A DNA stretch of 45,232 nt from assembly GCA_036397915.1 (NCBI GenBank), contig DASWIB010000203.1, positions 1 to 45,232 on the forward strand, in the 5' to 3' direction. Both the position numbers and the translations under genes were made by a program. The notes under the pieces are model-generated. The model had not been told where the DNA came from and searched no databases. It saw only the letters and a program-made list of their open reading frames with translations. This document shows positions 19,797 through 23,918 of this stretch, in pieces (positions within the stretch are counted from its first letter, which is position 1; the number at the start of each line of letters is the position of its first letter). This DNA comes from Thermoanaerobaculia bacterium. GTDB lineage: Bacteria > Acidobacteriota > Thermoanaerobaculia > UBA5066 > Gp7-AA6.

Positions 19797-22700
19797 AGCA
19801 CCGCCTACACCACCGACTCGATCAAGCTCCTCAAGGGGCTCGAGGCCGTGCGGAAGCGGCCCGGGATGTACATCGGCGACACCGATGATCTCTCCGGACT
19901 CCACCACATGGTCTTCGAGCTCGTGGACAACTCGATCGATGAAGCCCAGGTCGGGCACGCCGACAGGGTGTCGGTGACGATTCACGCCGACAACTCCGTG
20001 ACCGTCGAGGACAACGGCCGCGGCATTCCGGTCGGGATGCACAAAGAGCACAAACGCGAGACCCTCGAGATCATCATGACGGACCTCCACTCGGGCGGTA
20101 AGTTCGACGACAACTCGTACAAGGTCTCGGGTGGACTGCACGGCGTCGGCGTCTCGGTCGTGAACGCGCTCTCGAAACGGCTCGACGTCGAGGTGCGCCG
20201 AGACGGGAAGGTCTGGGTTCAATCCTACGAGCGCGGCGTTCCGCTCGCCCCGATCCGGACCACGGGAACTTCGCGCAAGAACGGCACGAAGATCACGTTC
20301 TGGGCGGATCCGCAGATCTTCTCGGTCACCGAGTTTCATTTCGACAGCCTCTCCCAGAGGCTGCGGGAGCTGTCGTTCCTGAATCCCGGCGTCGCGATTT
20401 CGATCCAGGACGAGCGCACCGACAAGAAACACGACTTTGCCTATGAGGGCGGGATCCGGTCCTTCGTCGAGCTTCTGAACAAGACCAAGCAGCCGATCCA
20501 CGACAAGGTCATCTACTTCCAGGACGTGAAGAGCGGCACGGGAGACCCGCAGCGAAACGCCGACAAGGAGAAGGTCGAAGTCGCGCTTCAGTGGAACGAG
20601 GGCTACACCGAGACGATCTTCACGTTCACGAACACGATCAACAACCGGGATGGCGGCACGCACCTCGAGGGCTTCAAGACGGCGTTGACGCGCGCGCTTC
20701 AGCGCTACGCCGAGCAGAACGGGCTGACGAAGTCGTTGAAGGAAACGAGCCTCTCCGGCGACGACTGCCGGGAGGGGCTGACCGCGGTCGTCTCGGTCAA
20801 AGTCAAGGACCCGAAGTTCTCCTCGCAGACCAAGGACAAGCTCGTCTCGTCCGAGGTCAAGACCTGGGTTCAGCAGGCGGTTTACGAGAAGCTCGGCTCC
20901 TACCTCGAAGAGAACCCGCGCGTCGCGCGGCGGATCGTCGAGAAGATCGTCGAGTCGGCGCGGGCGCGCGAGGCGGCGCGCAAGGCGCGCGAGCTCGTGC
21001 GGAGGAAGGGCGCTCTCGACTCGGGATCGCTGCCCGGAAAGCTCGCCGACTGCCAGGAGAAGAACCCCGCCTTCTCGGAGCTCTTCATCGTCGAGGGAGA
21101 CTCCGCCGGCGGCAGCGCGAAGCAGGGGCGAGATCGCCGCTCACAGGCGATCCTGCCGCTCCGCGGAAAAATCCTGAACGTCGAGAAGGCGCGTCTCGAC
21201 AAGATGCTCGCGAACGCCGAGATCCGGACGCTGATCACGGCCCTCGGGACCGGGATCGCGCAGGACTTCGACATCACACGAGTCCGGTACCACAAGATCG
21301 TCATCATGAGCGTGGACGCCGAGGAGCATGTCTTCGTACGCGATGCGCGTGGGGTCCGGATGGTCAAGATCGGCGAGTTCGTCGACGCGGCGCTCGGGAA
21401 TGCTTCTCGAGAAGGCTACCAGAAACTCTCCGGGGGCGATCTCGGTCAAGTGCTCTGCTTCGGCCGCGACGACAACACGATCCGATTCCGGCCGATCCAG
21501 AGCGTGCTGCGGCACCCGCTCGACGAGGACTTGTTCGAGGTCCGCACATCGTACGGCCGCTCCGTCCGCGTCACCGCCAGCCACAGCGTGTTCGTGAACG
21601 AGAGCGGAGAAATCCGCCTCAAGCGGGGCGACGAGCTTCGGGTGGGCGATTCACTCGTTGCACCCCGCCGGATCCGCCTGCCGCAAGACGCGCCGGAGCG
21701 CATCGATCTCCTGACGCGCCTCCACGGGACACCAGAGGCCCGGCAGATCTGGGTGCGCGGCCCGGCCGTCGAGGAGTGGTTCAAGAAAACGATCGTGCAG
21801 CAGTACGAAGCGCGTCCGGAGTTGACCGAAGCTCGCCTCGACGTCCCCGAGCCCGTCCGCGAGGAAGTCGCGGCCCTCCGCAAGGTGAGCGGCCTGTCGA
21901 ACGAAGAACTCTGTGCGGCGGTCGGCATCCGGCAGCCGGTGACCTTCTACGCATGGGAGAAGGGAACTTCGCGGCCGCGCCTGTCGAACTGGACGGCGTA
22001 TCTGAAGGCGATCGGCGCCGACACGGCGTCCGTCATGTCCCGCGTCTCCCCCGCGCCGAGCTGGCTCGCACGGACCTGGGATTCACAGTACCGCGCCTCC
22101 GGCGCCAACCGCGTACGTCCCTACGTGCGCCTTTCGGATCTCACGGCCGAGGATCTCGAGTGGCTCTCGGACCGAGAAGACCTGGAGCTGTCGCCGGAGC
22201 ACTACGGCGCGCAAGCGGTGCCGCGTCATCTGCCGGTCAATGCCGACCTGATGAAGTTGCTCGGGTTCTACGTTGCCGAAGGCTCCTGCTCCTCCCGGAA
22301 CGGGGTCCGGTTCGCGATCGGTCGGCGCAATGAGGTCGTCGCGGAGGAAACGGCGCGCGCGATCGAGGCGGTTTTCGGCACGCCGCCCAAACGGTATTGG
22401 ATCGAGGGCCGCGCCGGCGAGCTGAAGCTCGTCAACCGCGTCGCTTCTCTCGCCTGGCAGGAGCTCTTCGGCTTCCGTGGCGCCTCGTCGACGACGAAGC
22501 GGGTGCCGGATCTCGTTTTCAGCGCGCCGGAGCCGCTCCGGATCGCGTTCCTGCGCGGCTACTTCCTCGGAGACGGCACCGCGTCGAAGCACGGGATCTC
22601 TTTCGCCACGTCGTCGCGAGACCTCGCGAGCGGGATCACTTATCTCCTGTCGTCGCTCGGGATCGCCGCGTCGCTCTCTTCACGCAAACCGGATGGCGTG

Positions 22701-23918
22701 GTCCGTGAGATCCGCGGCGGCGCCTGCATCACCCGTCACGAGCACTGGACGGTCCACGTTTCGGCGAAGGAGGACCTGCGGAGTCTCGAGCCGGTCTGGG
22801 GCGATCACGCGAGCGCGCCGGCTCTACGGGTCCGGCTCACGAACGGCAGGAAGGACATCCCGCGGAAGTTCCGCCCGATTTCCGGCGATCTCATGGCGCT
22901 GCCAGTCGAGTCGATTTCGACAATCCCCGCGACCAACGGTCAGGTCTACGACTTCTCCGTCGAAGGCGACGAGAACTTCATCGCGGGGATGGGTGGGCTC
23001 TGCTGCCACAACACGGACGCGGACGTCGACGGCAGTCACATCCGCACGCTGTTGCTGACGCTCTTCTTCCGGCACATGCCGGCGGTCATCGAGAAGGGGT
23101 TCCTCTACATCGCGCAACCGCCGCTCTTCAAAGTGGCCGAGGGAAAGCGCGAGACGTACCTGAAGGACGAGAAGGAGATGTCGAAATTCCTCCTCGCCCG
23201 GATCGGTGAGGACCGCGCGCTGACGTCGGAGATGTCCGGGGCGAGTGCGTCGGGAGGGAAGCTCGTGGGGCTGCTCGAGAAGATGGAGGAGTACCGCGGC
23301 CACATCACCCGGCTGGTGGGCCGCGGCGTGCCCGAAGGCGTCGTGCGGGCGCTTCTCGACCGCGGCATGCTCTCCAAGAACGACTTCGCGGACAGGAAGC
23401 GCGTCGAAGACCTCGCGAAGGCCGTGCGAGCCTTCGACGTCGAGAAGGTCGAAGTCGTCGCGGACGAGGAGCACTCGGGCTGGGCGCTCGAGATCATGCG
23501 ACGGATTTCGGGCGTGCCGCGGACGGCGTCGATCGACGCCGAGTTCATCTCCTCCTATGAGATGAAGCGCTTGCGCGAGCTCGCGAAGTCGATCGGCGGG
23601 TTCCTGGACGGACCTTACGTCGTCACGCGCAACGGCGACAGCGAGCGACACTCGACCCTCCCCTCGGTCGTCGACGCCATCTACGAGTCCGCGAAGAAGG
23701 GCCTGGTCGTGTCCCGCTACAAAGGTCTCGGCGAGATGAACGCGGAGACCCTCTGGGAAACGACGATGAATCCGGAAAAGCGGCGTCTCCTCCAGGTCAA
23801 CGTAGAAGACGCAGTCGAGGCGGACCAGATTTTCTCGATCCTCATGGGCGACGCCGTCGAGCCCCGCCGCGATTTCATCGAAAAGAACGCACTCAACGTG
23901 AGGAACCTGGATATTTGA
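19794..23918 (+). CDS. gyrB: DNA gyrase subunit B, interrupted by an intein (extein ~806 aa + intein 568 aa)
   Basis: [30 protein letters not shown] start, GHKL ATPase motifs, the Toprim [30 protein letters not shown] split by the insert, and a C-terminal RYKGLGEMN...LMGD.VEPRR.FI. The start is placed at the ATG at 19794 (the track ORF starts inside recF). Confidence 0.95.
21309..23012 (+). mobile_element. GyrB intein with a LAGLIDADG homing-endonuclease domain (568 aa, Ser1 ... His-Asn / Thr+1)
   Basis: The insert lies exactly between IM and TDADVDG of the conserved Toprim motif. Block A is [10 protein letters not shown], block B is VTASH, LAGLIDADG motif 1 is [22 protein letters not shown] motif 2 is [13 protein letters not shown], and blocks F/G are [23 protein letters not shown] followed by T. 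Confidence 0.9.

Follow-up and report, generated by a model that had tools for sequence, protein, structure and literature searches.

A class-1-type LAGLIDADG intein with a predicted helix-turn-helix module splits the Toprim DxD motif of GyrB in a Thermoanaerobaculia bacterium

Introduction

Among solved proteins, the one that most resembles the element described here, an intein inserted into the gyrB gene of a Thermoanaerobaculia bacterium, is PI-PkoII, also called PI-TkoII, which is intein 2 of the Thermococcus kodakarensis DNA polymerase (PDB 2cw7). The gyrB gene in question lies on contig DASWIB010000203.1 of GenBank assembly GCA_036397915.1, and positions 1 to 45,232 of this contig, in the following called the window, were analysed as a whole. 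PI-PkoII is large (537 amino acids, aa) and joins a Hint splicing domain to a LAGLIDADG endonuclease and to extra domains, among them one that resembles a helix-turn-helix (HTH) domain and the additional 'domain IV' (PMC8966425). Accessory domains, some of them HTH-like, have been described for TliVMA as well as for PI-TkoII, and in the solved intein endonucleases an accessory domain follows the endonuclease core and precedes the C-terminal Hint region (Hint-C) (PMC8966425). PI-PkoII resides in archaeal PolB and is a characterised enzyme, whereas the intein of the window is known from its sequence. The TFIIB mini-inteins of Methanocaldococcus (PDB 5o9i and 5o9j) likewise reside in an archaeal host protein and differ from the intein of the window in having neither an endonuclease nor an HTH module.

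For GyrB itself, the sole intein with experimental work that we found in the searchable literature is the Synechocystis-type Ssp GyrB intein, familiar from split-intein engineering. It has Ser at position +1. As read from the fragments matched by an Ssp GyrB query (best 68% identity), its junction is ...EGDSAGG/CFSGDT..., where the slash marks the insertion point here and in all sequences below. Soucy 2014 (PMC4071816) treats a single 'gyrB' allele in halobacteria, cyanobacteria (including Synechocystis) and others, Novikova 2016 (PMC4760082) counts 33 bacterial GyrB inteins, and in PMC9348778 a total of 61 intein-containing archaeal GyrBs is removed from a dataset. Within the portions of papers open to literature searching, we found none that names or describes a GyrB intein allele at the Toprim DxD motif, and the main texts of the GyrB intein surveys, as far as they are accessible, do not give the insertion point.

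Here we describe such an intein. It is very probably a bifunctional element, capable of both splicing and homing, of class-1 type, and it belongs to a widespread allele at the Toprim DxD motif of GyrB (IM/TDADVDG).

Results and Discussion

An intein splits the Toprim metal-binding motif of GyrB

The reading frame 18879-23918 on the forward strand is uninterrupted and, from the GyrB start at ATG 19794 (MSTAYTTDS...), encodes 1374 aa with no internal stop codons. The original prediction had placed an intein of 1704 nucleotides (nt), or 568 aa, within the Toprim motif of this protein, and its limits were confirmed to the base by translation and by comparison with 806-aa orthologs. The insertion point lies in the DxD metal-binding motif, between ...YHKIVIM and TDADVDG. 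Intein-free orthologs of exactly 806 aa read ...IVLM/SDADVDG or ...VCLM/TDADVDG at this position, and the boundaries of the insert are unambiguous because these orthologs continue across the same point. Upon removal of the insert in silico, an 806-aa GyrB resulted that is colinear over its full length with the 806-aa intein-free GyrBs and 92-96% identical to them; the DNA junctions align exactly, and the healed site reads CACAAGATCGTCATCATG/ACGGACGCGGACGTCGACGGC. The N-extein taken alone is 96-98% identical to intein-free relatives. With the NCBIfam equivalog model for gyrB, TIGR01059, the precursor scored 941 bits against a cut-off of 882.4, the match falling into two stretches. The N-extein matched Pfam HATPase_c, DNA_gyraseB and Toprim (profile positions 1-65 of 96), and the C-extein matched GyrB_hook, GyrB_insert and DNA_gyraseB_C. 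The coordinates of all parts are collected in Table 1.

Table 1. Parts of the gyrB precursor gene and its intein in the window
Feature	Position	Strand	Remarks
gyrB precursor gene	19794..23918	+	1374 codons + stop (stop codon 23916-23918); N-extein, intein, C-extein
N-extein, 505 aa	19794..21308	+	GHKL ATPase, transducer, first half of Toprim; C-terminal end ...RYHKIVIM
Intein, 568 aa	21309..23012	+	1704 nt, in frame; Ser1...His-Asn, C-terminal end GGLCCHN
N-terminal Hint splicing region (Hint-N, aa 1-122)	21309..21674	+	block A (aa 1-10) with Ser1 as predicted nucleophile; block B TASH (T89-x-x-H92)
Accessory module (aa 123-305, 183 aa)	21675..22223	+	between Hint-N and endonuclease; predicted five-helix HTH of XRE/Cro-C1 type
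HTH core (aa 181-243)	21849-22037	+	within accessory module
LAGLIDADG homing endonuclease core, predicted (aa 306-455)	22224..22673	+	two motifs; Pfam LAGLIDADG_3
LAGLIDADG motif 1 (aa 314-326)	22248-22286	+	predicted catalytic Glu324
LAGLIDADG motif 2 (aa 412-424)	22542-22580	+	predicted catalytic Asp422
Segment between endonuclease core and Hint-C (aa 456-525)	22674..22883	+	strands 455-484, helices 487-511 (model)
Hint-C (aa 526-568)	22884..23012	+	block F; block G GGLCCHN, His567-Asn568
C-extein, 301 aa + stop	23013..23918	+	begins at Thr+1 of Toprim TDADVDG; then GyrB hook, insert, C-terminal domains

The insert matched the Hint and intein models against which it had been proposed to be checked, four curated models scoring above their cut-offs: Pfam Intein_splicing (PF14890; 59.2 bits, cut-off 35.8), Pfam LAGLIDADG_3 (PF14528; 56.1 bits, cut-off 22.5), NCBIfam intein_Nterm (TIGR01445; 40.1 bits, cut-off 24.5, spanning aa 2-96) and NCBIfam intein_Cterm (TIGR01443; 20.9 bits, cut-off 15.6, spanning aa 546-568). 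Splicing blocks A, B and F/G and the two LAGLIDADG motifs were all present where they had been reported, with blocks F/G at aa 546-568, a terminal ...GGLCCHN and Thr at +1. By sequence, the closest solved proteins are PI-PkoII (3e-39) and the TFIIB mini-inteins (9e-23). The Hint-N region aligns to residues 5-149 of PI-PkoII and to the TFIIB mini-inteins, whose Hint halves are 33-35% identical to those of the window intein and share its VD..E start and its ENFIAG.GG..HN end. A class-3 assignment was rejected, as the Trp/Cys/Thr (WCT) signature is absent, block F has Asp548 and Ser1 is present. The agreement with the intein models and motifs far exceeds what chance would give, and judged by its sequence, the insert is a real and apparently active intein of class-1 type.

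An AlphaFold model of the intein, built from an alignment of 17 family members, reached a predicted local distance difference test score (pLDDT) of 91.6 and a predicted template modelling score (pTM) of 0.85. When it was compared with the PDB by Foldseek, the best matches were all intein endonucleases, namely PI-PkoII (7.5e-31; template modelling score normalised by query length, TMq, 0.60 and by target length, TMt, 0.63), TliVMA (1.6e-21), PI-PfuI (1.3e-16) and PI-SceI (1.7e-12); mini-inteins matched the Hint part, and I-DmoI and WhiA matched the LAGLIDADG part. The domain order is Hint-N, the 183-aa accessory module, the LAGLIDADG core (ending at about aa 455), a further segment and Hint-C. 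In the endonuclease, each of the two LAGLIDADG helices ends in a catalytic acidic residue (Glu324 and Asp422), and in the model the duplicated alpha-beta-beta-alpha-beta-beta-alpha saddle fold matches PI-PkoII, PI-PfuI, PI-SceI and I-DmoI. The intein is thus predicted to be a monomeric, double-motif LAGLIDADG homing endonuclease. Residues 456-525 align to about residues 430-500 of PI-PkoII, and we ascribe to them, by analogy, the role of the accessory domain that solved intein endonucleases have in this position.

The insert splits the Toprim DxD motif of the single gyrB gene of the origin cluster, in which dnaA (15726-17249), recF (18517-19731), gyrB and gyrA (24172-26820) follow one another, and the view that gyrase activity here depends on protein splicing was thereby borne out. 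One might object that the visible genome amounts to 45 kb, so that a second gyrB elsewhere is conceivable and the copy in the window could be a pseudogene or a non-splicing insertion variant, with gyrase supplied from another locus. We give this practically no credence: the 1374-codon frame is intact, the ratio of nonsynonymous to synonymous divergence (dN/dS) in the exteins is 0.06-0.09, the canonical dnaA-recF-gyrB-gyrA position is common to intein-free relatives, and all splicing residues are conserved. The gene is to be annotated as an intact gyrB that is functional only after splicing; the label of pseudogene would be wrong, and so would 'LAGLIDADG endonuclease' and 'HTH protein', which the database names of its relatives suggest.

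The allele is widespread and differs from the Ssp GyrB type

A protein search with the intein alone matched 178 proteins, of which 120 were listed. All 120 were fragments or precursors of GyrB, and every readable junction was at the same site. Among 48 readable N junctions, Ser1 was present in each, 47 of them reading Met/Ser-Val-(Asp or Ala) and one having Leu at -1; of 76 readable C junctions, 75 read Asn/Thr-DADVDG and one had Ser at +1. The full-length inteins in this search measured 523-581 aa. In addition, a scan in which each GTDB species was represented by one genome matched at least 599 stretches, 532 of which were confirmed as relatives by tblastn. The best 80 of these 532 are full-length copies with 55-78% identity and span Acidobacteriota, Steroidobacteraceae and other Gammaproteobacteria, Burkholderiaceae, Polyangiaceae, Nitrospirota, Planctomycetota, Gemmatimonadota, Rhodothermales, Elusimicrobia and others; the protein search adds haloarchaea, Chloroflexi and cyanobacteria to the hosts. 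The family is thus carried by no fewer than 80 verified genomes, each representing a species, from many phyla.

Conservation of individual residues was counted over 82 genomic loci, of which 81 were readable for Ser1 and Thr+1. None of the 82 copies contained a stop codon. Among the splicing residues, Ser1 was found in 81/81 loci, T89, H92, D548 and N568 in 82/82 each, H567 in 79/82 and Thr+1 in 80/81. The endonuclease residues were conserved to a similar degree, with Glu or Asp at position 324 in all 82 copies, K397 in all 82 and D422 in 81.

Members of the DxD-site family from Thiorhodospira sibirica, Planktothrix agardhii, Steroidobacteraceae, Gemmatimonadota and haloarchaeal metagenome-assembled genomes share with the window intein the IM/TDADVDG site, Ser1, Thr+1, the terminal His-Asn and the module order Hint-N, HTH, LAGLIDADG, Hint-C. 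Their identity is 35-90%, and the window copy shows no structural difference from them. Its closest relatives are P0132 (90% identity), P0135 and L005 (78% each) and L006 (71%); public data already hold a 99% identical fragment (P0004) besides the full copy P0132. In public databases the members bear generic names, either 'LAGLIDADG family homing endonuclease' or 'helix-turn-helix domain-containing protein', and the gene calls of homologs are frequently fragments. GyrB inteins at the DxD site thus form a large cross-phylum family, and the window intein is a typical member of this common and abundant family, built from known parts.

These results do not sustain two peculiarities that the original prediction had seen in the window copy. 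The combination of Ser1 and Thr+1 is the family norm, and the length is ordinary as well, full-length family inteins having 523-582 aa; nucleophiles and size alike are traits of the intein allele and not of the window copy. The window intein is about 6% longer than PI-PkoII, and its extra length is due to the 183-aa HTH accessory module, which is conserved in the family.

Nor did the comparison with cyanobacterial GyrB inteins hold, as it mixed two alleles. Both types reside in the same Toprim domain of the same host protein, split a catalytic motif and make gyrase dependent on splicing. However, the Ssp type follows EGDSAGG, a site 76 residues upstream in the window GyrB, begins with Cys1, is unrelated in sequence and is not among the matches of the window intein. 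An Ssp GyrB-type allele was rejected for the window intein, since EGDSAGG/SAKQGR is uninterrupted in the window GyrB.

Within the representative library, P0271 (a GyrB of 1343 aa) has two separate Intein_splicing stretches and a Toprim profile match that starts late. Probably a single gyrB holds two inteins here, one at each of the Toprim sites EGDSAGG and DxD.

About 15 of 76 family members have Lys, Ala, Ser, Gln, Val or Cys in place of the penultimate His of block G. Among them are P0031, P0044, P0062, P0022, P0026, P0027, P0030 and P0083, the last of which, from Kofleriaceae, has degenerate LAGLIDADG motifs as well. The His replacements and the motif decay of P0083 indicate that members of the family have reached different points of the homing cycle.

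The accessory module contains a predicted HTH domain

Residues 147-307 of the window intein and residues 150-271 of PI-PkoII, both lying between Hint-N and the endonuclease, could not be aligned by sequence. In the window intein, aa 123-305 hold a domain assigned to the XRE/Cro-C1 type of HTH, for which DNA binding is predicted. The case rests on the family. Among 17 aligned members, Pfam HTH_31 matched the same segment in 14 and HTH_3 in 10 at E<=0.01, with best E values of 1.3e-9 and 4.5e-11, respectively. When the family profile of the module was compared with the PDB, it matched HigA (6.6e-6), the P22 C2 repressor (5.9e-5) and also HipB. With the AlphaFold model of the isolated module (pLDDT 89.9), superposition on XRE HTH domains gave TMt 0.65-0.74 and a root-mean-square deviation of about 2 Å, the DNA-binding domains of P22 c2, C.AhdI and SinR giving TMt 0.71-0.74; among the fold matches of this isolated model there were no solved inteins.

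When 1.84 billion representative proteins were searched with the module, the complete unit proved, among the matches checked, to be confined to GyrB inteins at the Toprim site. Nine long, full-coverage matches were scanned, seven of which have GyrB extein domains around the intein and two of which are intein-only fragments; the other matches were generic XRE domains.

By analogy with the known intein endonucleases, additional contacts with DNA are the most likely contribution of the HTH module. A host-serving role was also considered. The HTH could give the excised intein a second function as a sequence-specific DNA-binding regulator, or make gyrase splicing responsive to DNA or stress, so that the family would be kept across phyla for host benefit and not by homing alone; we regard this as very unlikely. 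In a related form, the intein would be a domesticated regulator, with conditional splicing (in response to stress, redox state or temperature) tuning the gyrase supply, the HTH of the excised intein acting through DNA binding, or both. This would suit the strong conservation of the module, which matches that of the catalytic residues (G206, Q209 and E217 are invariant in 82/82 loci), its confinement to GyrB inteins among the matches checked, and a cross-phylum conservation of the intein that equals that of GyrB, and a 'panic button' idea for replisome inteins has been published (PMC4760082). However, both splice nucleophiles are Ser or Thr, which makes the known disulfide traps unavailable, and in many members of the family the CC pair beside His-Asn is CA, AA or AV. 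The intein is absent from most close relatives, an operator-like repeat tied to the intein was not found, and the HTH-like accessory domains of intein endonucleases already have an explanation as DNA-contact modules (PMC8966425). Domestication as a regulator is therefore highly improbable in our view.

The predicted splicing by Ser and Thr only, together with a well-defined XRE-type accessory domain, may make the family useful for cysteine-independent splicing tools or for studies of homing-site recognition.

Proposed splicing and homing cycle

In the proposed mechanism, translation would yield the 1374-aa precursor, in which the Toprim metal-binding site is physically split; such a precursor would therefore be inactive as gyrase, and active gyrase would arise only through protein splicing. 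The two parts of the Hint domain (aa 1-122 and 526-568) would fold together and splice by means of oxygen nucleophiles only. An N-O acyl shift at Ser1, helped by T89 and H92, would be followed by attack of Thr+1, the native Thr of TDADVDG, on the ester in a transesterification. Cyclisation of Asn568, helped by His567, would then release the intein, and an O-N shift would leave a scarless 806-aa GyrB with IMTDADVDG restored.

The free 63-kDa intein would act as a LAGLIDADG endonuclease, to which the HTH accessory module would add DNA contacts, and would cut intein-free gyrB at the conserved ATCATG/ACNGAYGCNGAYGTNGAYGG. Double-strand-break repair from an occupied copy would then introduce the intein along with part of the neighbouring extein DNA. 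The consensus of the 81 healed sites reads ...TCATCATG/ACNGAYGCNGACGTNGACGG.

Selection, empty sites and recombination at the locus

In the search with the spliced 806-aa GyrB, proteins of exactly 806 aa were found at 92-96% identity, several of them recorded under the name Thermoanaerobaculia. The host, which had been described as Acidobacteria-like, is accordingly assigned by sequence to the class Thermoanaerobaculia of the Acidobacteriota.

Between the window and the occupied allele L002, dN/dS was 0.158 for the whole intein, 0.12 for Hint-N, 0.20 for the HTH module and 0.13 for the endonuclease, with 0.064 for the N-extein and 0.092 for the C-extein. By this measure every part of the intein, the endonuclease included, is under purifying selection. 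Within the Thermoanaerobaculia clade, identities of intein and extein are 90/95, 78/93 and 70/88%, such that the intein diverges two to three times faster, in step with the extein. The history suggested by these values is mainly one of vertical descent, or of exchange between close relatives, together with loss. Across phyla, identity is 55-62% for the intein, 54-63% for the N-extein and 37-47% for the C-extein, a plateau that fits occasional long-range transfer. Base composition gave no signs of a recent import into the window: the G+C content of the intein is 0.668 (0.84 at third codon positions), that of the exteins 0.63-0.64 (0.88-0.90), and the window mean is 0.666.

The search for empty gyrB sites in related genomes, which had been suggested as a check for homing, was positive. 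The closest GyrB relatives have an empty site, and among the 120 nearest GyrB clusters the intein is present in only three (P0132, P0135 and P0205). The order recF-gyrB-gyrA is common to empty (L001, L004) and occupied (L002, L003) contigs, L002 also showing dnaA and dnaN. A neighbour-joining tree built from the exteins pairs as sisters the window with the empty P0121, the occupied P0132 with the empty P0131, and the occupied P0205 with the empty P0155; with occupied and empty alleles interleaved in this way, several gains or losses must have taken place.

The synonymous divergence (dS) along gyrB forms a mosaic. L004 is the nearest empty allele, and against it the dS of the window is 0.08-0.11 for codons 1-300, 0.29-0.30 for codons 301-505, 0.69 for codons 506-600 and 0.25 thereafter. 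In codons 506-600, the 95 codons 3' of the site, it is the occupied allele L002 that lies nearest to the window (dS 0.31). The mosaic region corresponds to codons 301-600 of the spliced gene, that is, to 20694-21308 and 23013-23297 of the window. It looks like co-conversion of flanking extein DNA in homing, or the reverse, loss of the intein through recombination with an empty allele.

Several points weigh against a bifunctional, mobile intein. Splicing and DNA cleavage were both derived from the sequence alone, and with Pfam HTH_31 the module of the window copy scored 21.5 bits, below the cut-off of 27. The co-conversion signal is based on four alleles only. The in-step divergence is also compatible with mainly vertical descent and repeated precise loss in place of frequent new invasions, and a search of phage genomes, plasmids and IMG/VR for the intein gave no copies as a possible vector. 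Moreover, in the empty alleles L004 and L001, 8 of the central 30 nt disagree with the healed site, and in L004 codon 506 is Ser (TCC) in place of Thr at +1 of the DxD motif; these two empty sites may be cleavage-resistant target variants.

Such observations would also suit an intein that splices but no longer moves. It would have been inherited vertically and removed precisely from most relatives, and its endonuclease would be inactive or left without cleavable targets. The joint scaling of intein and extein divergence inside the clade, the altered targets of nearby empty alleles and the lack of phage or plasmid copies in the searches all agree with it, and the degenerate motifs of P0083 demonstrate that decay does occur in the family. 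However, both catalytic acidic residues and K397 are intact in the window copy and in 81-82 of the 82 copies, the endonuclease dN/dS of 0.13 is hard to explain without selection for activity, and the dS mosaic at the site points to intein-linked recombination. We therefore consider an immobile intein unlikely and favour the bifunctional intein.

Other sequence features of the window

At the start of gyrB, at 19751-19796, a perfect 23-bp tandem duplication (GGGATCTGAGCAAAGGAAACATG x2) doubles the ribosome-binding region of gyrB and the ATG. The first ATG (19771) opens a three-codon reading frame (MGI*), and gyrB itself starts at the second (19794). An imperfect copy of the duplication is present in L004, the nearest relative, and L001 and L002 are without it.

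Open reading frames on the reverse strand across the intein were rejected as artefacts of high G+C content because all homology lies in the forward frame. Rfam and tRNA scans of the window revealed no RNA genes.

The gyrB-gyrA spacer (23919-24171) contains a 28-bp tandem repeat, TCGTCGCTTCGCTCCTCAGGATGACAAC, in 4.9 copies at 24021-24158, and two inverted copies (GTCATCCYGAGCGAAGCGARGGATC) at 23936-23960 and 23974-23998. The corresponding spacers of relatives are shorter and have related hairpin-like elements of the GTCATCC/GGATGAC kind, and the repeats look like a small family of repeated extragenic elements. Elsewhere in the window, two-copy tandem repeats were found at 1772-1835 (32 bp) and at 33236-33347 (56 bp, 96% matches), the latter being G+C-rich and hairpin-like.

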